NCBI GenBank assembly: GCA_964605205.1
Contig: CAZSBL010000004.1
Coordinates: 1-55,500 of the forward strand
Origin: an uncultured Gemmatimonadaceae bacterium
GTDB taxonomy: Bacteria; Gemmatimonadota; Gemmatimonadetes; Longimicrobiales; RSA9
Direction: 5' to 3'
Length of the DNA: 55,500 bases
Part shown: piece by piece, positions 3,031-55,500 of the stretch
Position numbering within the stretch: position 1 is the stretch's first letter
Layout: each line of letters starts with the position of its first letter
Notes under the pieces: model-generated
Databases searched by the model: none
What the model saw: the letters and a program-made list of their open reading frames with translations, nothing else
What the model was told of the DNA's origin: nothing
Program-made: the position numbers and the translations under genes

Positions 3031-4980
3031 ATGGCGAAGGTGGGTTCGCGTCCGGGCCCGAGCTGTCACGAAGCCCCCGCGTTGGCGGCGTCCGGGCACG
3101 CGCTGATCGCGCTGGTCGGTCCACCCAACGCGGGTAAGACTACCGTGTTCAATCAGCTGACGGGGCTGCGCCAGAAGGTGGCGAACTACCCGGGCGTGAC
3201 CGTGGAGAAGCACGTGGGCCGGGCCCGGGTCTCGGACACGGTGGTGGTGGACGTGGTGGATCTACCGGGGGTCAACGGGTTCTCGGCCCGGACACTGGAC
3301 GAGCGGGTGACTCGGGACGTGCTGGAGGGGAAGGTGCCGGACCTGCGGGCGCCGGACGCCATCGTGGCGGTGGTGGATTCCACCCGCCTGGAGAGCCAGC
3401 TCATGCTGGTAGAGCCAATCCTGAACCTGGGGCGGCCCACCCTGCTGGTCCTGAACATGGTCGACGAGCTGGAGAGCCGGGGCGGCTCCATCGATGACGA
3501 GGCGCTGGCCCAGCGGTTCGGGATCGATGTGGTCCGGACCAACGCCCGGAAGGGCGTAGGGCTCGGTCGGGTCAGAGCGTTCATGGCCGGCGTGGAGGCG
3601 GCCCGGCAGCCCGAGTCGGACCCCGAGGCGGAGGTGGTGGAGCGGCTGGAGGAGTCCCTGTGCGATCGTGCAGGGGAGGTCCAGCTGCCCGTGGTGGACA
3701 TCTTCCGGGAGCGGCGGGCCCGGATCCGAGACGCCGTGGAGGCGGCGGACCATCGCCCCCCGGCGCCGTCGGAGCTGACGCGGCGTCTCGACTCGATCTT
3801 CCTCCACAGGGTGGCCGGCCCGCTCACCTTCCTGGCCGTGGTGGTCCTGGTCTTCCAGGCCATCTTCGCCTGGGCCGCGCCGTTCATAGACGCCGTGGAG
3901 TGGGCCCTGGCGGGCTCGGGCGAGTGGCTGGCGCCCCGGCTGCCGGAAGGGTGGGTACAGTCGCTGGTGATCGACGGCGTCTGGGCCGGCGTTGGGTCGG
4001 TGGTCATTTTCCTACCGCAGATCCTGATTCTCTTTCTCTTCATCGGGATCCTGGAAGATTCCGGGTACATGGCCCGGGCCGCCGTGATCGCAGATCGGCT
4101 CATGGTGAAGATCGGGCTCCAGGGGCGGTCGTTCCTCCCGCTGCTGAGCGGCTATGCCTGCTCGATCCCGGCCATCCTGGCCGCCCGGACGGTGGAGGAT
4201 GAGCGTGACCGGCTGGCCACGATCTTCGTCACCCCGTTCATGACCTGTTCCGCCCGGCTCCCGGTCTACGCGGTACTGATCGCCGCGTTCGTCCCGGCCG
4301 CGCCGCTCCTCGGTCCGTTCCTGGGCATGCAGGCGGCTGCGCTCCTCGGGGTCTACGCCATCGCCGTGGTGGCCGCCATCGGGACCGCGTTCCTGTTGAA
4401 GCGGACGCTGCTCCGAGGCAAGTCGTCCGGCTTCATGATGGAATTGCCGCCGTACCGCATCCCGTCGCCGAAGACGGTGGCCATCCGCTTATGGGACCGG
4501 AGCCTGATCTTCCTGAAGCGGGCGGGGAAGATCATCTTCGCCGTCACGGTGGTGCTGTGGGCACTCGCCCAGTTCCCCCAGGTCGATGGCGGCCCGCCGC
4601 CCATCGAGGACAGCGCCCTGGGCACCATCGGCCAGGTCATCGAGCCGGTCATCGAGCCCCTGGGCTACGACTGGCGCGTCGGGATCGGCCTGGTCTCCTC
4701 GCTGGCCGCCCGGGAGGTGATCATCGGCACGTTGGGCACGATCTACGGCGTGGAGAACGCCGACGAGACGTCGCTCACGCTGATGGAGAACCTCCGGCAG
4801 CACCTCGACCTGGGCGCGGCCTTGGGCCTCCTGGTGTTCTTCGCCTTCGCCCTCCAGTGCACCTCCACCGTCGCGGTGATGCGGAGGGAGACCGGAGGGT
4901 GGAAGTGGCCGGCGCTCCAGTTCGGCTACATGCTGGCGCTGGCCTTCGGCGGAGCCTGGCTCGTGAACTGGCTGGTGTAG
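3031..4980 (+). CDS. feoB: Ferrous iron transport protein B
   Basis: G1 GPPNAGKT, G2 VANYPGVTV, G3 DLPG, G4 NMVD; membrane domain with LEDSGYMARAA, PFMTCSARLPVY and FMMELPPY. The start may instead be GTG 3025. Confidence 0.95.
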   Translation: MAKVGSRPGPSCHEAPALAASGHALIALVGPPNAGKTTVFNQLTGLRQKVANYPGVTVEKHVGRARVSDTVVVDVVDLPGVNGFSARTLDERVTRDVLEGKVPDLRAPDAIVAVVDSTRLESQLMLVEPILNLGRPTLLVLNMVDELESRGGSIDDEALAQRFGIDVVRTNARKGVGLGRVRAFMAGVEAARQPESDPEAEVVERLEESLCDRAGEVQLPVVDIFRERRARIRDAVEAADHRPPAPSELTRRLDSIFLHRVAGPLTFLAVVVLVFQAIFAWAAPFIDAVEWALAGSGEWLAPRLPEGWVQSLVIDGVWAGVGSVVIFLPQILILFLFIGILEDSGYMARAAVIADRLMVKIGLQGRSFLPLLSGYACSIPAILAARTVEDERDRLATIFVTPFMTCSARLPVYAVLIAAFVPAAPLLGPFLGMQAAALLGVYAIAVVAAIGTAFLLKRTLLRGKSSGFMMELPPYRIPSPKTVAIRLWDRSLIFLKRAGKIIFAVTVVLWALAQFPQVDGGPPPIEDSALGTIGQVIEPVIEPLGYDWRVGIGLVSSLAAREVIIGTLGTIYGVENADETSLTLMENLRQHLDLGAALGLLVFFAFALQCTSTVAVMRRETGGWKWPALQFGYMLALAFGGAWLVNWLV

Positions 4981-5020
4981 TGCCGGCGTTGTTGGCGGTG
5001 GCGCTGACGGGTCCTGGCAT

Positions 5021-5200
5021 CGGGATAAGTCCCCAGACAACGCCTCCCGCCGCCGCGGGTTGGGGACTTTCATACACATATCGTATAGAAGTCCCCTGAC
5101 AATGACTGGCACCCGGCGATGTTTGGGAAGTTCTATACACATATCGTAGGAAACTCCCCACACTGCGACCCGCCGACCCGTTCTTTGGGGGATTGTCCCG
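5021..5200. repeat. Array with 62-63-bp period: symmetric AT-rich 27-bp cores separated by variable GC-rich spacers
   Basis: ATACACATATCGTA at 5072 and 5135; AA(G/C)TCCCC at 5027, 5089 and 5152; TTGGG at 5060, 5123 and 5185. Confidence 0.85.
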
Positions 5201-5322
5201 GGGCTCCGAAGCGGAATCCCTGCGCTCCCCGGAAACGAACGGTCCGGCCGAAGCCCTCAGCGCCTCCACGGCATGTTGGCTCGTCCGCCGACCGTCCTCG
5301 CCGACGAGACGGCGCCTCCGCG

Positions 5323-6306
5323 TCAGCCCGTCGCGTCCAGGAGCACCCCCAGCGCCTCGTTGAACGCCGCCGGGTTCTCCATCCCGGAGAGGTGTCCGGC
5401 CCGGGGCACCACCACCAGCTTCGCGCCGGGGATGGCATCGGCCATGGTCCGGGCGCCCTCGGGCGGGGTGATGGCGTCGTGCTCACCGACGATCACGAGG
5501 GTGGGCGTCTCGATCCCGGCCAGGTCTCCGGTGGAGTCGTGGCGGCAGGCCATCCCGCCCAGGGCGGCGATGACGGTCTCGGGCCGGGTACCGAGGATCA
5601 TCTCCCGGACCGTCTCCTCCACCTCGGGTCGCTGTTCCCGGGTCTGGTCGGCCAGGAGGTCGGGGATCATGGCCCGGGCGACGGGCTCGGTGCCGTTCCG
5701 TCGCACGGCCTGGGCCACGCGCATCCGGTTCTCCCGGCCTTCGTCGGTGTCGGCTTCGGCCCGGGTATCGGCCAGGATCAGCCCCCGGACCAGCTCGGGC
5801 CGGCGGCGCACGAGCTCGAGGGCCACATAGCCACCCATGGAGAGGCCGCAGACCACGGCGGGCCCGTCGACCTGGTCTTCGATGAGGCGGGCGATGTCAT
5901 CGGCCAGGCACGCCATGGAGAGGACCGGGTCTTCGGGGAGCGCGATCCCGGCGCCCATCCGCTTGCCGGTGGGCGCGCACCCATCGCCGTCGATGGGGGA
6001 CCGGCCGAAGCCCCGCAGGTCGGGGGCGATGCCCCGCCAGCCGCGGAGCGCGTCGGCGCCGCCCGGATCGGGGCTGGAGCCGGCGTTGGCGTCGAGGTCG
6101 CGCCAGCCGGCGGCCCCGGGGTCGCGGCCGGAGCTGCTGCCATCGGCGTCGTCCTGATCGCCGGACGGATCGGTCTCGCCGTCGCCCTCCAGGGCCTCGA
6201 GCTGGGGCGCCCACATCCCGCCGTGAAAAGGGAACCCGTGGATGAAAACGATAGTGCCCCGGGCGTGGTGCTCCCGGGGCCCCGCGGTGCGCAGGTGAAG
6301 CTGCAT
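5323..6306 (-). CDS. Alpha/beta hydrolase (PcaD/enol-lactonase-like)
   Basis: IHGFP oxyanion loop, DLRGFG, nucleophile GLSMGG, acid in GEHDAI, His in AGHLS. Confidence 0.9.
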   Translation of the reverse strand: MQLHLRTAGPREHHARGTIVFIHGFPFHGGMWAPQLEALEGDGETDPSGDQDDADGSSSGRDPGAAGWRDLDANAGSSPDPGGADALRGWRGIAPDLRGFGRSPIDGDGCAPTGKRMGAGIALPEDPVLSMACLADDIARLIEDQVDGPAVVCGLSMGGYVALELVRRRPELVRGLILADTRAEADTDEGRENRMRVAQAVRRNGTEPVARAMIPDLLADQTREQRPEVEETVREMILGTRPETVIAALGGMACRHDSTGDLAGIETPTLVIVGEHDAITPPEGARTMADAIPGAKLVVVPRAGHLSGMENPAAFNEALGVLLDATG

Positions 6307-6322: not shown

Positions 6323-6625
6323 TCAGAGTCCGAGGGACGAGCGGATGAGCGGGTCCATCTTCTCGGGCGTCCAGGGCGGGTCGAAAGTGAGCTCGATGTC
6401 TGCGTGGTCCACGCCCTCGATCCCCTCGACCTCCCGCTTGGCGTCGGCCAGGATCTGGTCCACGGCCGGGCACATGGGGGTGGTCAGCGACATCGTGACG
6501 TGCACGTGGTCACCGTTCACATCCACGTCGTAGATGAGCCCCAGGACCACCAGGTCCAGATTCAGCTCCGGGTCCTTCACGTTGCGGAGCGCCTGCTTCA
6601 CCACTGCTTCATCGACCATGCTCAT
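6323..6625 (-). CDS. Metal-sulfur cluster assembly factor (DUF59/MIP18/SufT-like)
   Basis: VKDPELNLDLVVLGLIY, MSLTTPMCP, LTFDPPW. The true start is probably ATG 6619 given RBS spacing. Confidence 0.92.
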   Translation of the reverse strand: MSMVDEAVVKQALRNVKDPELNLDLVVLGLIYDVDVNGDHVHVTMSLTTPMCPAVDQILADAKREVEGIEGVDHADIELTFDPPWTPEKMDPLIRSSLGL

Positions 6626-8066: not shown

Positions 8067-9002
8067 ATGCACGATGAGGTGAGACCAGAGACGGCCGGCG
8101 TCCCCGGCGGGCGCGAGCCCGCGCCGGGCCCCACGCTGAGTGCCACGTGCTGGGGCACGCGGGGCTCGATCCCGAGCCCGGGCCCGGCCACGGCCCGCTT
8201 CGGCGGCAACACCTCGTGCCTCGAGATCCGGACCGATGACGACCGGTGCCACATCTTCGACGCGGGCACCGGGATCCGGGTGCTGGGCAACCGCCTGTCG
8301 CAGGAGGATGGTCCGACCAACGTGAACCTGTTCGTGACCCACTTCCACTGGGACCACATCCAGGGGATCCCGTTCTTCGGCCCCCTCCACGCGCCGGGCA
8401 GCTTCATCCGGATCCACGCCGCCCGGCAGGGCGAGCTGGACATCGAGACGCTGCTCAGGGGGCAGATGGGGCCCGTGTACTTTCCGGTGCCGTACGAGGC
8501 GCTGGCGGCGGACCTCTCGTTCGAGCACCTGTCGGGCAAGCCGTGGCACGACAACGGGACCGAGGTGGCGGCGTACCGACTCCGGCACGCGGCCCACACG
8601 TACGGCTACCGGATCACGGCGGGTGACGCGAGGGTGGCGTACATCCCCGACAACGAGCTGCTGGGATCGAGCTACCCGGTGGACGGGCCCGATTGGTACG
8701 ACGGGCTGCTCGGGTTCCTCGATGGCGTGGACGTCCTTTTCCACGACGCCATGTTCACCGAGGACGAGTACCCCGCTGTGGAAGGCTGGGGGCACAGCAC
8801 GTTCAAGCAGTCGGTCAAGCTCGCCGAAGACGCGGGCGTGAGACGGCTGTACTTCTTTCACCACGCACCCGAGCGCACCGACGCCGAGCTGCTGGGCATC
8901 CTCGACCGGATGCGCGAGGACGTGGAACGGCGCGGGTCCGGCCTCGAGCTGGGCGTCGCGGCGGAGGGCGAAGAACTCCTGGTTCAGGGAGGCGAATCGT
9001 GA
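8067..9002 (+). CDS. Metallo-beta-lactamase-fold hydrolase, putative cyclic-nucleotide phosphodiesterase
   Basis: WGTRGSIP..FGGNTSC, DAGTG, THFHWDHIQG, HDAMF, WGHS and FHHAP. The PDE role is inferred from the neighbouring genes. Confidence 0.85.
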   Translation: MHDEVRPETAGVPGGREPAPGPTLSATCWGTRGSIPSPGPATARFGGNTSCLEIRTDDDRCHIFDAGTGIRVLGNRLSQEDGPTNVNLFVTHFHWDHIQGIPFFGPLHAPGSFIRIHAARQGELDIETLLRGQMGPVYFPVPYEALAADLSFEHLSGKPWHDNGTEVAAYRLRHAAHTYGYRITAGDARVAYIPDNELLGSSYPVDGPDWYDGLLGFLDGVDVLFHDAMFTEDEYPAVEGWGHSTFKQSVKLAEDAGVRRLYFFHHAPERTDAELLGILDRMREDVERRGSGLELGVAAEGEELLVQGGES

Positions 9003-10930
9003 GAATCCGACATTTCCTGGTCCTGGCGGCCGTCACCCTGTTCGTGGCGTTCGGTCCGCCGGAGCGGACCTCGCCGGCGAAGTGGGCGCTGGTTATCGGG
9101 ATCAGCGACTACACCCACTTCGGCGACGAGATCGGCGGCGACCTGCCGGGCGCCGCCAACGACGCCCGGGCCATCGCCGACGTCCTGGTCAACAAGTATG
9201 ACTTCGCGCCGGGCAACGTGAAGCTGGTCCTCGACGGTGCCGCCACCCGGGCCCGGCTCGAGACGGAGATGACCGAATGGCTGCCGTCCATGGCCCGGCC
9301 CGGTGACCTGATCTGGTTCTACTTCGCCGGTCACGGCTCACAGGCGTGGGACCTCGATGGCGACGAGGAGGACGGCCTGGACGAGACCGTATGCCCCGCC
9401 GACGTGACCCGGGGCAACACCGAGATGGACATCCTGGATGACGAGATCGGCCAGTGGCTCGGCCAGCTGCCCACCGACAACGTGGTGGTGGTCTGGGACA
9501 AGTGCCACGCCAAGAGCAGCACCCGGGCGGTGACGCCGTTCGCCCGGCCCCGATCCCTCGACCGGAACGTGAAGGAGGACGTGGCCAAGCCCGAGGGCGC
9601 CACCGAGGGCCAGGTGGTCCAGGCCACCGAGGATGCCGGCGGCACCGGCACCGGCGTGCTCGAGATCGCGTCCGCCCAGGCCGACGAGGTGGCCATGGAC
9701 GTGGCGTTCCAGAAGCAGCCCGGGCAGGCCACCTTCGGCGGCGCGTTCACCACGCCGTTCGTGGAGAACATGTGGAACGCCCGGGACGGCGCCACCTACG
9801 ACGAGGTCTTCAACCAGACCAAGAGCGCCATGCGGCGGGATCGGCGGCAGCAGCAGCCGGCCATCGATGACAAGTCGCTGAAGGACCGGCCGCTGTTCTG
9901 GGTCGAGACGGCGCAGCCCACGGAGGCGCCGCCGGAGGCGGAGGCCTCGCCGGTGGAGCGCGTGTACGGGATGGCCCGGATCCTCGAGCTGCCGTCGGAG
10001 ACGCGGGCGATCCTGGCCGGCGGGTTCAACGCCGACATGACCGTACGGTCGCTCTACCGCGCCGGTGATGACTTCCTCGAGATCACCGATGTGGACCCGG
10101 ACCGGGCCGAGGCCCGGGTCGCCACGCGGGAGACCCGGGGGATCGGCGTGAGCCGCGTGGGCGCGCTGGCCGAGGGTGGCCTCGCCCGGCTGGTGGCGTA
10201 CCGCTACCCGGACGCCATGCTCCGGGTCATGGTCGGCGACCTGCCGGATCAGGTCCAAGCGCGGCTGCGCAGTGAGCTGGTCAGCGTGCCGGCGCTGGTG
10301 CTGATCTCTGATGCCATCGACTTCTCACACCTCCTGGTCCGCCCCCGGAACAACCACTTCGTGGTCCTCAATCTCGACGGCTTCCCCCGGGACTCGGTCC
10401 CGGCCACCGATGGCGCCGCGGGGCTCGCTGAGCTGCTGAAGCGGGAGTTCGGCCAGTACCAACTCACGGAGCTGGAGAACCCGGGCCAGCCGTTCGAGGT
10501 GGAGTTCGCGTTCGGCAACGGTCGCACCGACTTCCAGCTCGGCGAGACCGTCTCGTTCCAGGTCACCTCGGAGCGGGAGGGCTACCTGACCATCGTGGAC
10601 CTGGCGCCGGACGGGACCGTCAGCGTCATCTTCCCGAACGAGTACGTGGCCGAGAACAAGGTCTACGCGGGCCGGATGATGGAGTTCCCGGCGCCGGAGA
10701 TGGACCTCCAGTTCACCGCCATCGAGCCCGCGGGCCGGGGCGTGGTCCGGGCCTTCGTGACCGAGCGGCCGCTGGTCATGCCGTTCGCTCAGGGCGCCGA
10801 CGCCACGGAGGCCAGCCGGATCTGGACGGCGCTGCGCAACGCGGCCGGCCGGGCGCCGATCCAGGGCAGCGACGCCATCCCGGTCCACAACTGGGCCACG
10901 GCGGCCATCGTGTACGAGATCCGGCGCTAA
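8999..10930 (+). CDS. Exported peptidase C14 (metacaspase-like) with C-terminal DUF4384-like domain
   Basis: GTGA overlap with the MBL stop; hydrophobic leader VRIRHFLVLAAVTLFVAFG; KWALVIG, FAGHG (His), DEEDGLDET, WDKCH (Cys); C-terminus LGETVSF..EGYLTIVD..DGTVSVIFPN. Confidence 0.88.
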   Translation: MRIRHFLVLAAVTLFVAFGPPERTSPAKWALVIGISDYTHFGDEIGGDLPGAANDARAIADVLVNKYDFAPGNVKLVLDGAATRARLETEMTEWLPSMARPGDLIWFYFAGHGSQAWDLDGDEEDGLDETVCPADVTRGNTEMDILDDEIGQWLGQLPTDNVVVVWDKCHAKSSTRAVTPFARPRSLDRNVKEDVAKPEGATEGQVVQATEDAGGTGTGVLEIASAQADEVAMDVAFQKQPGQATFGGAFTTPFVENMWNARDGATYDEVFNQTKSAMRRDRRQQQPAIDDKSLKDRPLFWVETAQPTEAPPEAEASPVERVYGMARILELPSETRAILAGGFNADMTVRSLYRAGDDFLEITDVDPDRAEARVATRETRGIGVSRVGALAEGGLARLVAYRYPDAMLRVMVGDLPDQVQARLRSELVSVPALVLISDAIDFSHLLVRPRNNHFVVLNLDGFPRDSVPATDGAAGLAELLKREFGQYQLTELENPGQPFEVEFAFGNGRTDFQLGETVSFQVTSEREGYLTIVDLAPDGTVSVIFPNEYVAENKVYAGRMMEFPAPEMDLQFTAIEPAGRGVVRAFVTERPLVMPFAQGADATEASRIWTALRNAAGRAPIQGSDAIPVHNWATAAIVYEIRR

Positions 10931-10942
10931 GGCGGTAGCGGA

Positions 10943-13129
10943 ATGGAGCGGAAGCGGGCGGTCATCGCCGGCGTCATCGCGCTGCTGTCGGCCGTGGTGG
11001 CGTACGGGTTCACGCACATGCAGTTCTTCCAGCCGATCTTCGGGACCGCGGAGCAGACCACCCTCGACTGGCGGCAGCGGTTCTCCGCCACCGAGATGCC
11101 CCGCGACACCTCGGAGATCCGGCTGATCCTCTTCGATGAGGAGAGCGTGGCGGAGTGGCCGTACATGAGCCCCTTCCCCCGCAACGTCCTGGCCGACCTG
11201 ATCCGTGTGTCGTCGGCGTTCGCCGCCGCCGCCATCGGGCTGGACGTCTACCTCGAGCGCCGTTACCCCGAGCTGAACCCCGTGGGCGGCGGCGACGAGG
11301 CGCTCCGGGCGGCCATCGAGCAGGCCGGCAACGTTATCCTGGCCGCGCCCCTCGACCGGACCGAGGCGGGGGGGTGGGTGGCTCACCCGCCCGACCCGTA
11401 CTTCGCGGAGGTGGCGGCGGGCGTCGGCTACGCGGAGATCCCCACCGCCTTCGACGTGGTCTCCGAGGCCACCCTCTTCACCCGCACGGAGAACCGGGGC
11501 TTCGTCCCCGGCTTCGCCCTGGCCGTATACGCCCGGACCCGGGGGCTCGACCTCGACTCGCTCATGACCAGCATCGAGGAGAAGGGGTACCTCGACCTGC
11601 CGGGCCTGCCGGAGGAGTACGCCCGGGTGAAGCCCGATGAGGCGGTCCACAACATGAAGATCGTGTTCGCCGGCCCGCCCTCACGGCCGCACCTCGAGAC
11701 GGTGGACGCCAGCGGCGCCACCGCGAGCGAGGGCGAGTCCCCCGGCGCGTTCCGGGCGTTCTCGTCGCAGTCCATCTCCGCGTTGAGCGACCTGGTGGCC
11801 ATGGGCGTGGACCTGGGCGAGGCCTTCGACCTGCGGGGCCGGGCGGTCATGATGGGGAGCGGCTTCCACGCCGAGGAGAAGTTCAAGACCCCGTTCTACT
11901 TCGAGCCCGACGAGACGGGCGCCATCAAGGGGTGGATGTTCGGGACCGAGGTCCACGCCAACGCGCTCCACGACCTGCTGACGGCCACCTACCTTGAGCC
12001 GCTGAGCACCGCCCGGACCTTCTTCCTGCTCCTGATCCTGGCCGCCATCACCGCGGCGGTGGCGTTCACCGGTGGCGTGACGTGGGGCGCGGTGACGGCC
12101 GTGGCCCTCTTCCTGGCCGATGGCGTCACCGCCGTGGTGGCTTTCGACACCATGCACCAGCACATCCCCGTGGTGGGCCCGGCGCTGGCCGCCGGCTTCG
12201 CCTTCCTCGGCGCCACCTCCTACATCAGCATCATCGAGGGGAAGGAGAAGCGGGTCATCCGGAGCGCGTTCGGGAAGTACCTCTCCCCGGTGGTGGTGGA
12301 CGAGCTGGTGGCCGACCCGTCGCGCCTCAAGCTGGGCGGTGAGAAGCGGGAGCTCAGCATCCTGTTCAGCGACGTGGCGGGCTTCACCTCCCTCTCCGAG
12401 TCCATGGAGCCCGACGCGCTGGTGGCGCTGCTGAACGAGTACCTCGATGATATGGCGGACATCGTCATGAGCGAGGGCGGCACGCTGGACAAGTACATCG
12501 GTGACGCCATCATGGCGCTCTACGGGGCGCCCGCGCCGCTCCCGGACCACGCCGTCCGCGTCTGCCGCACGGCGCTCCGGATGCAGCGGCGGCTCGACCA
12601 GATGAACCAGCGTTGGGCCGAGCAGGACCGGCCCCAGCTCGGGATGCGGATCGGCGTCAACACCGGGCACCCCGTGGTCGGCAACATCGGCGGCGAGAAG
12701 CGGTTCGACTACACCGCCCTCGGTGACGCCGTGAACCTGGCCGCGCGGCTGGAGCCGGCGTGCAAGACGTACCGGATCCAGACCATGATCGCCCACGGCA
12801 CGAAGGAGGCCGCCGGCGACGCCATCCAGACCCGGGAGCTGGACCTGCTGGCCGTGTACGGCAAGGAGGAGCCGATCCCGGTCTACGAGCTGGTGGCGCT
12901 GGCCGGTGAGGAGCTGGGCGAGATGGGCGAGCTGATCGAGCAGTTCGAGAAGGGGATCGGCGCGTACCGGAACCGGGACTTCGAGATGGCCCGGCAGTAC
13001 TTCCAGGCCGCCCTCGAGATCGACCCGGACGACGGACCGGCCGAGCTGTACGTGCAACGATGCGACGAATACATGATCAACCCGCCGCCGGCCGAATGGG
13101 ACGGTGTGGAGCGGCGGCAGGTGAAATGA
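10943..13129 (+). CDS. CHASE2-domain class III adenylate cyclase with C-terminal TPR
   Basis: N-terminal TM, CHASE2-like region (IGLDV, GNVIL, GTEVHANAL), 3 TM helices, FSDVAGF, DKYIGDAIMA (Lys for ATP selectivity), YTALGDAVNLAARLE, TPR-like tail. Confidence 0.93.
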   Translation: MERKRAVIAGVIALLSAVVAYGFTHMQFFQPIFGTAEQTTLDWRQRFSATEMPRDTSEIRLILFDEESVAEWPYMSPFPRNVLADLIRVSSAFAAAAIGLDVYLERRYPELNPVGGGDEALRAAIEQAGNVILAAPLDRTEAGGWVAHPPDPYFAEVAAGVGYAEIPTAFDVVSEATLFTRTENRGFVPGFALAVYARTRGLDLDSLMTSIEEKGYLDLPGLPEEYARVKPDEAVHNMKIVFAGPPSRPHLETVDASGATASEGESPGAFRAFSSQSISALSDLVAMGVDLGEAFDLRGRAVMMGSGFHAEEKFKTPFYFEPDETGAIKGWMFGTEVHANALHDLLTATYLEPLSTARTFFLLLILAAITAAVAFTGGVTWGAVTAVALFLADGVTAVVAFDTMHQHIPVVGPALAAGFAFLGATSYISIIEGKEKRVIRSAFGKYLSPVVVDELVADPSRLKLGGEKRELSILFSDVAGFTSLSESMEPDALVALLNEYLDDMADIVMSEGGTLDKYIGDAIMALYGAPAPLPDHAVRVCRTALRMQRRLDQMNQRWAEQDRPQLGMRIGVNTGHPVVGNIGGEKRFDYTALGDAVNLAARLEPACKTYRIQTMIAHGTKEAAGDAIQTRELDLLAVYGKEEPIPVYELVALAGEELGEMGELIEQFEKGIGAYRNRDFEMARQYFQAALEIDPDDGPAELYVQRCDEYMINPPPAEWDGVERRQVK

Positions 13130-19148: not shown

Positions 19149-20906
19149 CTACCGGTCCGTATCAGCCCCCGCGCCCGCCACGGCCAGGGGGATATCCCCG
19201 AGCCCGGAGAACTGCGGGTTCTGGCGCCCGTCGGTGGCATCGCGGACGCCGCCCTTCACGTAGGTGGCGACCTCGACGAAGGTGACGATCCCGTTGCCGT
19301 CGGCGTCGGCGTCGCCGTTGAGTCCCTGGAGGATGTGGTGGGTGAAGACGCCGTGGCCGCCGGCCCAGCGAGCGTCCTCGAAGCTGAGCTCGTTGACGTC
19401 TGCGGCGGTGAGGGTGAGCCGGCGGGACGGGGTGAACAGGTCATTGAAGGAGCCACCGATGGGGTTGCCATCGATGGGGATGTCGGACTCGCCGGTGCCG
19501 GCGGAGTGGCAGGCGTCGGCGATGACCACCACGCGCTCGGCGGAGATCTGCCGCCGGAGCGCGGTCTTCACGTCCCACATGGGGAACCCGGTGGCCGCCA
19601 GCGCGTCGACGTCGGTGTCCACGGGGAAGAGGTAGAGGTTGTCGGGGCGGTCCGGGTCGGGGGCGCCGTGGCCGGCGAAGTATATGACCACGAGATCGTC
19701 CCAGTCGGCCTGCTGGAGGAAGACGAACATGGCCTCGCGCATGGCGGCGCCGGTGGCCTGCTCGTCGGTGAGCAGGAGGATGTGGTCCTCCTCGAACGGG
19801 CCGGCGGCGTCGGAGCGGAGGAAGTCGTGGATGGCGCGGGCGTCGTCATCGGCGTACTCGAGGTCGGGGATGAGCCCGTCGTCGTACTCGCCGATCCCGA
19901 TGACCACGGCCCAGCGCTCGTCGATCCGGGGCGACGCGAATGCGGTGCGGGTGTTCCCCTGGCCGTCGCGGGCGACGATCCGGACGGAGTCACGGTCCAG
20001 CGCCAGCGGCGTCCGGGCGACGAACCGCGAGGCCGGGCCCCGGGTGATCCCCAGCCGCTGGGCGTCGGCGGCGCTCAGCCGCTCGAGGGAGACGGGCTCG
20101 CCCTCCACCTCCACGGCCACATCGCTGCCGATGACCACGCCCTCGATCTCCACCAGGTTCGTGGCGTTCTGCCGGGCCTCGTGCTCGGTGCGGGAGATGA
20201 CGCCGATCCCCCGGGTGGCCATCTCGCTGTCTTCCATCGGCTCGACCCGGGTGCCGAGGATGGCGAGCCCGGGACCGCCGGTGCCGGCCTGGCCCACGGA
20301 CTCCTCCACGGAGCCGGGGTCGGGCTCGAAGTAGCCGCGGCCGGTCCAGCCGTTGGCCTCCCAGTCATTGACGATGCCGCCGAGGAAGCCGGTCTCGTTG
20401 ATGACCTCCTCGGTGGCGGCCCGGAGCGCGCCGTTCCGGGCGGCCTGGTCCGTGGCCTCGAGCTCGCGGCCGGCGCCGGTCGCGGTGGCCACCACGTTGC
20501 CCTGGTCGAGCCGGAGCGCCCGGAGCCGGACCTCGCCGGTGCCGGTCACCAGCGTACCCGAGATGGGGTCGGGGCTCGTGCCCCAGTCGGCCTGGCCCAG
20601 GATCAGGACCTGGGCGCCGAAATCGCGCCCGAGGCGGACGGCCGCGCCCTCGTCGCCGGCGAGCGCCGCCTGGACCAGCTCCCGCTGCGCGGCCGTGTGG
20701 GCCAGCGCCGGGTCCACCAGCGGGAACCCGGCCTCTACCAGGAAGGAGGTGAGCTCGCCCACGGTCACGCCCGCGCTCCCGTCCTCGGGCACGAACACCA
20801 GCGTGCGAGGCAGCTCGCTCTCGAATCGGATCTCCTGGGCGGCCACCGGCGTCGCGATGGTGCAGACGACGGCGATCAGCAGCCCCAGCGTTGCCATGCG
20901 GTTCAT
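19149..20906 (-). CDS. Exported protein, FlgT/CsgG-like N-terminus plus C-terminal peptidase C14 (metacaspase-like)
   Basis: Signal peptide; AVRLGRDFGAQVLILG; RWAVVIGIGEY, FAGHG, ADACHSAG, GHGVFT, DADGNGIVT. Confidence 0.88.
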   Translation of the reverse strand: MNRMATLGLLIAVVCTIATPVAAQEIRFESELPRTLVFVPEDGSAGVTVGELTSFLVEAGFPLVDPALAHTAAQRELVQAALAGDEGAAVRLGRDFGAQVLILGQADWGTSPDPISGTLVTGTGEVRLRALRLDQGNVVATATGAGRELEATDQAARNGALRAATEEVINETGFLGGIVNDWEANGWTGRGYFEPDPGSVEESVGQAGTGGPGLAILGTRVEPMEDSEMATRGIGVISRTEHEARQNATNLVEIEGVVIGSDVAVEVEGEPVSLERLSAADAQRLGITRGPASRFVARTPLALDRDSVRIVARDGQGNTRTAFASPRIDERWAVVIGIGEYDDGLIPDLEYADDDARAIHDFLRSDAAGPFEEDHILLLTDEQATGAAMREAMFVFLQQADWDDLVVIYFAGHGAPDPDRPDNLYLFPVDTDVDALAATGFPMWDVKTALRRQISAERVVVIADACHSAGTGESDIPIDGNPIGGSFNDLFTPSRRLTLTAADVNELSFEDARWAGGHGVFTHHILQGLNGDADADGNGIVTFVEVATYVKGGVRDATDGRQNPQFSGLGDIPLAVAGAGADTDR

Positions 20907-21574
20907 CGGCTTCCTCCTTCCACTCGCTCGAGAGCCGCGGCCGCGGCCTCGTGCCGTGGGAACAGCTCCAGTGCTCTGCGATACATCTCCGCGGCCCGGC
21001 CCTCGAGCCCCTGCTCCTCGTAGGCCAGACCCCGGGAATAGGCCAGGATCGCCTCGACGGGCGGCTCCGCGACGTGGCCGGCCACCCGGGCGGGCAGCTC
21101 GATCCCGTCGAGGAAGTCGTCGGTCAGCGCGGTGACCAGGTCGAGCATGGCGTCGCGCCGGCCCTGCTGCCGGCTCGCCTTCTCCACCGTGCCGCTGGCG
21201 GCGTCGAGCAGGCGCAGGTCGATCCGGACCCGCTCCGGCTCCAGCGCCACCGTCCCGATCACCAGGTAATCCGCGCCCAGCACCCGGGCCAGCTCCACCG
21301 CCCGGCTCTCGTCCATCCGGCCCGAGAGCGCCAGCTGCCGCGTCTGGATCAGCTGCTCGATCTGCTGCCGGTCCACCACCTTCACCACCGGCCGATCCGC
21401 CAGCTCTGTGGTGATCATCGACGCCAGACCACGCCCCACCGCGTCCGCGTCCTCACCCGTCAGACTGAAAACGTTGAAGTCGAACACGGCGATAGTCGGC
21501 ACCCGGGCGTCCTGCGCCGCCGCCGCCACTGGCAGCAGCGCCATGACCAGAGCCAGCACAAAACGTCGAACCAC
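20903..21574 (-). CDS. Exported CsgG/FlgO-like domain plus TPR protein
   Basis: GGAGG then GTG; signal peptide ending AAAQ; IAVFDF, VVDRQQI, ARVLGADYLVIG, C-terminal YRRALELFP TPR; ATGA overlap with the caspase gene. Confidence 0.8.
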   Translation of the reverse strand: MVRRFVLALVMALLPVAAAAQDARVPTIAVFDFNVFSLTGEDADAVGRGLASMITTELADRPVVKVVDRQQIEQLIQTRQLALSGRMDESRAVELARVLGADYLVIGTVALEPERVRIDLRLLDAASGTVEKASRQQGRRDAMLDLVTALTDDFLDGIELPARVAGHVAEPPVEAILAYSRGLAYEEQGLEGRAAEMYRRALELFPRHEAAAAALERVEGGSR

Positions 21575-48868: not shown

Positions 48869-49170
48869 GGGCTGCGGCTGCTCAGGTCGGACGAGGCGAC
48901 GATGCTGCCGTCGCGATTCATCGCGCAGGGAGCGTGCCGGGCGGGGCAGCGCTCACGGGCGATGTTCTCACACCGGAACGCGCGGAATTCGCGGGAGGTT
49001 CGCGGAAAGGCTCCCGGGCGCTCCGCCGCCATTCCGGTGTGGAGCTGTTCCGAGTGCCGCCTTGCCAAGAAGCCGGAGGCCCTGCCGGCAACCCGGCCTC
49101 CACCGGTCCCCACTCAAATCTTAGTTCTTAGATCTCAGATCTAAGATCCCGCTGACAAGGGCAAAGACGC

Positions 49171-49659: not shown

Positions 49660-49903
49660 GATCAGGCGACGACGATGCCGCCGGACTCCGAGGATGACGC
49701 ACGCTCGTCCCGCTACGCAATCCGCCGGTGGAGTGAAACCCCGATGGCCGGGATGTGGTCCAAGCCCGGATCCTGGCCATGGCGTTGCCCGGGTCCCGGG
49801 CCCCTCTTGTACTTGTAGTTGTAATCGTAGCTTGTAATGAAGGCCGGAGGCTTGCCGGCAGGGCCGAGGGTCACGGCTCGCGGGCGCGCCTCCGCGCCTG
49901 CTC

Positions 49904-55210: not shown

Positions 55211-55366
55211 ATGTCCACTGTCCGTGTTCGTCTATCCCGGGGCCGGCCGTCCCGACCCCTCGGGGGCCCGCGCCCCGATTCCCGTTGTCAAGTTCCGTGC
55301 CCGTGCACCGCGCCTCGGTCCCGCGTCCCCAGACAAAAGGGCCCGTCGCATCGGGCGGCGGACAAT

Positions 55367-55381
55367 CAAGAATGATTCTCG
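55367..55381. promoter_or_regulatory. Fur-box-like operator upstream of the suf operon
   Basis: CAAGAAT-G-ATTCTCG with a perfect AGAAT-G-ATTCT core, similar to the site at 1696. Confidence 0.55.
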
Positions 55382-55500
55382 ATCTCAACAATACCCGCGC
55401 CACACCATCGATGCAAGGGGCCGTGTTCTGAGGCCTGCCATCATCGGCCATCTTAGCTTAACGGCAGGTAGACATTTAGGCGATGGGGCAGGGGGCGGGC

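Follow-up and report, generated by a model that had tools for sequence, protein, structure and literature searches.

The stretch of DNA considered here, which we call the window, is 55,500 nt long and begins within gyrA. At positions 5021 to 5200, in the gap between the stop codon of feoB (4980) and that of a convergent gene for an alpha/beta-hydrolase (5323), it contains an array of palindromic sites whose start-to-start period is 63 bp according to a repeat finder. No ORF of 60 aa or more lies wholly within these 180 bp, and the listed ORFs that cross them all run past their bounds. That the window stems from Longimicrobiales is confirmed by homologues of FeoB, GyrA and the hydrolase. The order of the parts is half-module, spacer, core A, spacer, core B, spacer, half-module. 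In its layout, coordinates, period and position between convergent genes the array is as the initial annotation described it, and the claim made there that these are symmetric sites which chance does not produce and no gene explains has also held.

The left terminal half-module, CGGGATAAGTCCCC, occupies 5021 to 5034 and is the reverse complement of the motif type found at the right end. It is followed by spacer 1 (5035 to 5061, 27 nt), whose 5' end is conserved (AGACAAC, against a consensus of AAACAAC) and whose middle and 3' end are variable. Core A (GGGGACTTTCATACACATATCGTATAGAAGTCCCC, 5062 to 5096, plus strand) is a 35-bp imperfect palindrome that can be written as GGGGACTTTCATAC-ACATATC-GTATAGAAGTCCCC, its polarity being given by the asymmetric 7-nt centre; an nhmmer profile scores it at 46 bits on the plus strand and 28 bits on the minus strand. 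Spacer 2 (5097 to 5124, 28 nt) has ends of the conserved type on both sides (TGACAAT...GATGTTT) and holds in its middle the dyad centre of the whole element. Core B (GGGAAGTTCTATACACATATCGTAGGAAACTCCCC, 5125 to 5159, plus strand), or GGGAAGTTCTATAC-ACATATC-GTAGGAAACTCCCC, is a direct repeat of core A and agrees with it at 27 of 35 positions (about 77%). Spacer 3 (5160 to 5186, 27 nt) varies at its 5' end and is conserved at its 3' end (GTTCTTT); a different contig of the source metagenome carries, behind a core, a copy of this spacer that is about 80% identical. The right terminal half-module, GGGGGATTGTCCCG, closes the element at 5187 to 5200. The geometry of the cores is 14-7-14; of the 14 positions in an arm 10-12 are paired, which makes the cores imperfect palindromes in the 20-60 bp range.

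The repeat finder reports a direct repeat of 47 nt with 74% identity at the 63-bp spacing, as well as inverted repeats within core A and others that join its right arm to the left arm of core B. The central 14-mer that the two cores share, ATACACATATCGTA, occurs exactly twice in the 55.5 kb, even when up to two mismatches are allowed (0.01 occurrences expected). Two statements about the spacers needed correction. They had been given as roughly 22 nt long, whereas they measure 27-28 nt between 35-bp cores clamped by GGGG..CCCC. They had also been called unrelated, whereas they share their ends, which are close to AAACAAC at the 5' side and to GTTGTTT or GATCTTT at the 3' side, the repeat finder giving 84% identity over 19 nt.

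The array is not alone. We compared the region with Logan contigs from four microbial-mat metagenomes that contain this sequence. Other contigs carry the same cores with different flanks, at a depth equal to that of the window's contig in all four samples; in the source metagenome there are four core-bearing contigs in all, the window's and three more. One observation concerns the window copy directly. In sample X4, positions 5022-5051 recur on a 1973-nt contig of about twofold depth with a different left flank (...CTCGTCATGAATAGCCGAGG), which joins the left half-module and spacer 1 directly. We found no place for this flank in the window or at any other locus, and the contig comes either from a variant strain or from a paralogue of very recent origin.

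A degenerate core pattern was also scanned against one genome per species (GTDB). It matches seven contigs of a single MAG, Longimicrobiales bacterium BLK5-2.bin.65 (BLK5 below), and two contigs of the Gemmatimonadota MAG LejiaA_69_34; elsewhere it matches only scattered singles and an unrelated 45-bp tandem repeat on several Prevotella MAG contigs. Hence the motif is neither unique nor unconserved, and its reading as a decayed local duplication is refuted. The pattern fixes 18 core positions, so that conservation at these positions is partly circular; the unfixed core positions, the linker lengths and the end motifs are not imposed by it. Six of the BLK5 loci have the layout of the window (half, core, core, half) with linkers of 26-28 nt, and the seventh, L033, has a single core. 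An eighth BLK5 copy, L082, is decayed and falls outside the strict pattern, but it keeps the architecture. The two LejiaA_69_34 loci represent a sister version with the same outline and a GC-rich centre, GTACCGCAGCGGTAC. One mat-metagenome contig, from a second population, has spacers about 89% identical to those of the BLK5 element L001; judging by the matching spacers alone, we read this contig as carrying the orthologue of L001. By the tests used there are about 4-10 copies per genome, a number which, like the count for BLK5, is a lower bound. No further copies were found in the approximately 250 kb of Gemmatimonadota sequence that was searched.

A scan of a metagenome collection returned mostly unrelated palindromes. 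Among its hits are 70%-GC soil contigs (L040, L046, L048 and L053) that carry a single, near-perfect 35-bp palindrome, GGGGAGTTTTGTACCTGTGGGGTACCAAACTCCCC, recurring in different contexts, whose relation to the Longimicrobiales family is uncertain. The 45-bp tandem repeat of the rumen Prevotella MAG is a separate repeat family that matches the pattern by chance. Its unit, GGGGAATTGAATACAAAGAGTGTAACTAATCCCCC followed by tcctacagga, is present in the MAG and in many rumen metagenome contigs (L020, L025, L056, L057, L065 and others), and this tandem repeat is bordered by the inverted repeats cctcccctaacccc and ggggttaggggagg.

Alignment of the copies reveals how the element is built. The family layout is CGGGAnAAnTCCCC, linker, core, linker, core, linker, GGGGAnTTCTCCCG, and the core consensus is GGGGAnTTCCaTAC-rmATATC-GTAGgGAAnTCCCC. 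The building block is a half-module of about 22 bp, CG-W-T-S-TTT-GGGGA-N-TTCC-a-TAC. Six such half-modules in alternating orientation make up the element: an outer inverted pair, CGGGAnAAnTCCCC ... GGGGAnTTCTCCCG, and two head-to-head pairs that form the 35-bp cores around the asymmetric 7-nt centre (rmATATC). The left end consensus is present at every two-core copy and the right end consensus at every copy. The two are reverse complements of each other, that is, terminal inverted repeats, and in the approximately 250 kb of Gemmatimonadota sequence they are confined to the elements, barring a few chance matches. Of the two strands of a canonical core, one scores 41-54 bits against the profile and the other 16-33 bits, and the two cores of an element share one polarity. 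The central 7-mers differ between copies and, in some elements, between the two cores. The right arm starts with GTAG in 11 of 15 cores and with GTAT or GTAC in the rest, the GTA being fixed by the search pattern; this tag lies inside the 35-bp core and is terminal only if the unit is taken to be arm-linker-arm.

The linkers, 26-28 nt long, are free to vary in the middle 12 nt or so. Their ends are conserved in a manner that is mirror-symmetric across the element. Scored against the end consensus (AAACAAC at the 5' side), spacer 1 matches at 6.4 of 7 positions at its 5' end and 3.1 at its 3' end, spacer 2 at 5.4 and 5.1, and spacer 3 at 3.4 and 5.9. It follows that the element is a dyad about the middle of spacer 2, and for this reason its plus strand folds as one long hairpin. 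The modules resemble one another at about 80-90%, with identities of 65-91% among paralogous copies, while their linker middles align at chance level (mean score -0.9, sd 3.1), with the exception of spacer 3 of L006 and L010, where 13 of 15 positions match. Between orthologues, in contrast to most paralogues, the spacer middles are conserved. No direct repeat that could be a target-site duplication was found in the bases flanking seven copies.

Is it the pairing or the sequence that has been kept? The plus strand of the window element folds at -84.1 kcal/mol, far better than shuffled sequences (z = -5.0), and the minus strand gives z = -2.6. Yet when two arms belong to one core or face each other from the two sides of a linker, they are complementary at 10.7 and 10.6 of 14 positions, respectively, which is not above the value for arms taken from different loci (11.1). 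In an alignment of seven copies, paired cells amount to 78.6% for the core hairpins (79.6% in shuffles) and 68.4% for the linker-spanning hairpins (68.8% in shuffles). Neither set of hairpins covaries, the covariation scores of both being below the shuffle means. The linker ends do not covary either (p = 0.19), and spacer 1 is not complementary to spacer 3. The initial annotation drew attention to core ends that differ but stay self-complementary (ACTT/AAGT versus AGTT/AACT). This is indeed seen in the window, but it is no rule of the family: the free position N (GGGGA-N-TT / AA-N-TCCCC) is unpaired in five of seven copies and, given the lack of covariation across the family, the compensatory look is an accident of the window copy. 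What is conserved is the sequence and not the pairing, which favours recognition of the half-sites by a protein over selection on an RNA or DNA stem. The absence of covariation, together with conserved half-sites of about 22 bp that have a free internal position, is what leads us to predict such recognition. Hence the earlier suggestion of dimeric-protein or recombinase sites survives in part: binding of a dimeric protein is still the best reading of the half-sites, and the dif/Xer version is rejected for reasons given below.

All copies examined lie between predicted genes. The neighbouring genes are unrelated to one another and encode FeoB, a hydrolase, GH47, a solute symporter, an AbiEi/DUF559 protein, GyrA, MnmG, a histidine kinase, a WYL protein, a thiolase, an amino-acid permease and others. 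The gaps that hold copies are convergent, tandem and divergent, and two copies lie in divergent promoter gaps. The copies in the window and at L010, L033 and L008 start 2-40 nt past a stop codon. No transposase, RAYT or recombinase gene adjoins any copy, the immediate neighbours being ordinary genes. Iron genes near three copies suggested a regulon; we rejected this idea, as the conservation spans 51 bp and copies are also present in convergent gaps beside unrelated genes.

The 3' flank of the hydrolase gene can be compared among relatives. In these, gyrA and the alpha/beta-hydrolase gene are convergent neighbours, separated by only 44 nt in L081. The gap between them is a hot spot of insertion whose cargo varies: the window has ferritin, a porin and feoAB, BLK5 a TonB-dependent receptor and a redoxin, the MAG M2_2A_002 Ada, and other genomes a protein kinase or FGE-sulfatase block (L078-L083 were compared). 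The state of the element at this flank differs as well. There are two canonical cores in the window; two cores in BLK5 that have decayed strongly, the end motifs and the linker lengths being intact (L082, 10942-11119); about 1.5 cores with the variant arms GGGGGATCGT and ACGATCCCCC in M2_2A_002 (L078); and in L083 only two terminal half-modules, which abut, CGGGGAATCCCC|GGGGTTTCCCG. In L074, the closest relative (its FeoB is 92% identical), the gap measures 72 nt and lacks a core, and in L079-L081 the element is absent from this flank. Where the architecture is kept, it is kept across lineages whose hydrolases are only 62% identical. Since the one-core copy L033 directly follows gyrA in BLK5, the receptor and redoxin cargo of that genome lies between two elements. 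An IS21-type gene near gyrA in BLK5 was considered and rejected, the DNA adjacent to it having no resemblance to the modules.

Several other features of the window and the loci may be recorded here. Just past the gyrA stop, at 716-822, there is a GC-rich tandem array of 4.5 copies of a unit of about 26 bp, CTCGCGGGTAGCTCGGCCTGCGGC, each with GTAG, and inverted copies of the unit lie at 990-1050; it is the sole such cluster in the window and the loci and looks like a second, REP-like repeat of small hairpins. In M2_2A_002, 13 heptamer repeats (11 GATCCAC and 2 AATCCAC; L078, 13826-13915) lie about 10 nt upstream of the variant element. AT-rich palindromes that resemble Fur boxes are present at 1695-1725 and 55360-55394 of the window and at 7350-7370 of L033; TTGAGAATGAGTCTCA lies upstream of the porin-feoAB genes in the window and also of the BLK5 TonB-dependent receptor gene, and GAATGATTCTC precedes the suf operon at the window's end. 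The gap from mscL to the gene for a cysteine desulfurase (sufS-like) holds AT-rich tandem repeats, ATCTTAG x4.4 (49110-49148) and a CTTGTA type x5 (49804-49842), which are unusual for a genome of 70% GC. Two caspase-domain (Peptidase_C14) proteins, one with a DUF4384 domain, are encoded at 8627-13129 and 19149-21452 beside a CHASE2-adenylate/guanylate cyclase, and the relatives L081, L082 and L083 have kept the cyclase paired with the caspase protein that carries DUF4384. For the 100-aa protein encoded at 6323-6625, a look-up found no record in public assemblies. The window contains no DnaA-box cluster.

With moderate confidence, we regard the array as one copy of a lineage-specific, non-coding family of composite palindromic intergenic repeats, about 180 bp long and similar to REP dimers, BIMEs and MITEs, whose modules are predicted to be recognized by a protein acting in trans. 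Dispersal, confinement to intergenic gaps, terminal inverted repeats, the lack of coding capacity and a sporadic, size-variable presence in relatives are what place it in the class of non-autonomous palindromic repeats. How the copies are recognized, how they move and what they do to the host would, we infer, be as follows. A protein with sequence specificity may recognize the half-modules. Probably it is a transposase or recombinase, analogy pointing to a RAYT-type HUH enzyme or to the transposase of an insertion sequence. The action of this protein, together with the instability of palindromes and of 63-bp repeats, would spread the element to new intergenic sites. The same action would add or remove 63-bp units and so leave 0, 1 or 2 cores at one site; such steps might come from the protein, from unstable repeats and palindromes, or from the two together. 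Where it sits between convergent genes, the element may in addition place a hairpin at the 3' ends of transcripts.

Several observations speak against this reading. The copy number is low, about 4-10 per genome against the hundreds of classical REPs. No copy has a target-site duplication, and no transposase or RAYT gene is among the immediate neighbours. Bar a few partial matches, such as those of spacer 3 noted above, the spacer middles of paralogues are unrelated, although recent copy-and-paste would yield similar spacers; this pattern fits old copies kept by selection on their modules, and it fits a host function too. Likewise, the persistence of the architecture at the hydrolase flank, at 62% hydrolase identity, could reflect selection at the site rather than repeated insertion.

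These points lead to the main rival of the dispersed repeat family. The element may be a cis-acting scaffold of the host, in which sites phased at 63 bp, or about six helical turns, bind a dimeric or oligomeric host protein. The protein might be nucleoid-associated, insulator-like or related to DNA topology, and the defined complex that it builds, some 180 bp in length, would sit at a few places on the chromosome. The modules are clearly constrained, being far more conserved than the linkers, and at one site the architecture has persisted over long divergence. Half-sites that are conserved in sequence, unconstrained at one internal position and free of covariation speak for such a protein, and so do the fixed architecture and linker lengths at all loci and the low copy number. 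Nevertheless, the element is absent at the same site in the closest relative and in L079-L081, the number of cores varies (0, 1 or 2), and there is no pattern in the neighbouring genes or gap types. In BLK5 the copy at the orthologous site has decayed while other copies in that genome are canonical, which looks like turnover and not like site-specific selection. The scaffold also comes without a candidate protein. On balance we consider it possible but unlikely.

A bolder form of this idea, which we consider distinctly unlikely, would make the elements functional landmarks of the chromosome and not selfish DNA at all. The six phased half-sites of a closed, mirror-symmetric array would be bound by a protein specific to Gemmatimonadota in a complex of about 180 bp, and the array would change in 63-bp steps at fixed palindromic sites. 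Such a complex might mark the borders of insertion hot spots, for example of the gyrA-hydrolase gap. If correct, this would imply a site-bound process of unit addition that has no known counterpart.

Could the array act as RNA instead? Once transcribed, it might be a small RNA or the 3' UTR of feoB, folded as three hairpins or a single long one, and serve as a terminator, a stabiliser of mRNA or a processed repeat RNA. The strong fold of the plus strand and the start of several copies shortly (2-40 nt) after a stop codon would suit such a role, and roles of this kind have been ascribed to REP-type repeats (PMC3733652). However, neither set of helices covaries, conservation is symmetric on both strands, the minus strand folds only modestly better than shuffles, and two copies lie in divergent promoter gaps. 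Scans for promoter and terminator consensus sequences, including a U-tract terminator, found none, and an Rfam scan of 4500-5800 with E up to 10 returned no family match, only chance-level hits of the microRNA type (E of at least 1). A structured RNA is therefore quite improbable.

Core-type sites of a tyrosine recombinase, whether dif sites of the Xer system or the att-like border of an inserted gene block, are highly unlikely. Like dif/XerCD sites, FRT and loxP, the cores have inverted arms of about 14 bp around a short asymmetric centre of 7 bp, and both are directly oriented; their ends (ACTT...AAGT) resemble the Bacillus dif sequence quoted in the initial annotation. That the gyrA-hydrolase gap is a hot spot, and that the BLK5 cargo lies between two elements, would also be in keeping with borders of this kind. 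But dif is a single 28-bp site per replicon, at the replication terminus, with an 11-6-11 geometry, whereas these cores are 14-7-14, lack a conserved XerD arm and are dispersed over at least eight loci per genome beside unrelated genes. The centre of 7 nt is not constant from copy to copy or, in some elements, from core to core, and no recombinase gene is present in the window or beside any copy. A link to the terminus, which was to be sought in the GC skew, did not appear either: within the window the skew goes with the strand of the genes, and at 5 kb it does not switch.

The notion of a degenerate orphan CRISPR, with palindromic direct repeats of about 35 bp alternating with variable spacers of 27-28 nt, is effectively refuted: repeat length, spacer length and the regular 63-bp period are within the CRISPR range, spacer middles differ between loci and assemblies break at the repeats, but each locus is a fixed, mirror-symmetric unit closed at both ends by mirror-image half-modules, with at most two full repeats that differ by about 20% (about 77% identity in the window), with conserved, dyad-symmetric spacer ends and without a leader, and no cas gene is present in the 55.5-kb window. 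A CRISPR array, by contrast, is open-ended and has three or more near-identical direct repeats, unique spacers, a leader and cas genes. Nor do the spacers behave as acquired sequences. Those of L001 recur at about 89% in a second population, in what we read as its orthologue, which suggests inheritance without turnover; and in the search for foreign sources that had been proposed, the three spacers and the repeat had no exact match in viral contigs and the element had no blastn match in phage or plasmid records.

As one copy of a dispersed repeat family, the array matters in several ways. Known intergenic palindromic repeats come mainly from Proteobacteria and a few other phyla, and this family adds one from the little-studied, largely uncultured Longimicrobiales. 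Its design is unusual: low copy number, a fixed mirror-symmetric layout, no base-pair covariation, and strongly conserved half-sites of 22 bp beside freely varying linkers of 12 nt. It offers a concrete target for finding a new DNA-recognizing protein, be it a transposase or a host factor. The presence of 0, 1.5 and 2 cores at one site in related genomes constitutes a natural series for the gain and loss of repeats. Finally, units of this kind break metagenome assemblies and may be mistaken for CRISPR arrays or recombination sites.

Among known systems, MITEs are similar in size (about 180 bp), in being non-coding, and in having terminal inverted repeats, here CGGGAnAAnTCCCC and GGGGAnTTCTCCCG, which close every two-core copy. 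As at transposon ends with subterminal repeats bound by the transposase, the extended sites point inward, with two copies per side, and the copies are dispersed among unrelated intergenic sites and sporadic in relatives. The Longimicrobiales element differs in having no target-site duplication and in linkers that are unrelated between copies, whereas a MITE normally stays similar from end to end. The loci and the viral, plasmid and phage collections yielded no insertion sequence with matching ends that could be its parent.

The other relatives to consider are REPs, BIMEs and REPINs. Published REP families form inverted dimers and ordered clusters and carry a GTAG tag (PMC3733652; PMC3116915). 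The families with this tag have been listed for Proteobacteria, Cyanobacteria, Chloroflexi and the PVC group, Gemmatimonadota not being among them (PMC3733652). Membership in REPs proper is not established, given the low copy number (about 4-10 per genome as a lower bound, not the tens to hundreds of REPs) and a half-module that is not itself a stable stem-loop. In addition, a REP has its GTAG (or CGTC) at one end of the palindrome, capping a small hairpin, whereas here GTAG lies within the 35-bp core. The layout of the element is fixed and closed, and no RAYT gene, which in REP systems is flanked by the repeats, lies beside the copies. In published REP dimers the sequence of the spacer, about 20-100 bp long, can vary at constant length, and some dimers are embedded in a longer outer palindrome (PMC3733652; PMC3116915). 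The present family shares these features. Like REP sequences, it consists of short imperfect palindromes that are strictly intergenic and alternate in orientation as dimers or clusters, it leaves no target-site duplication, and it is present in some relatives and absent from others.
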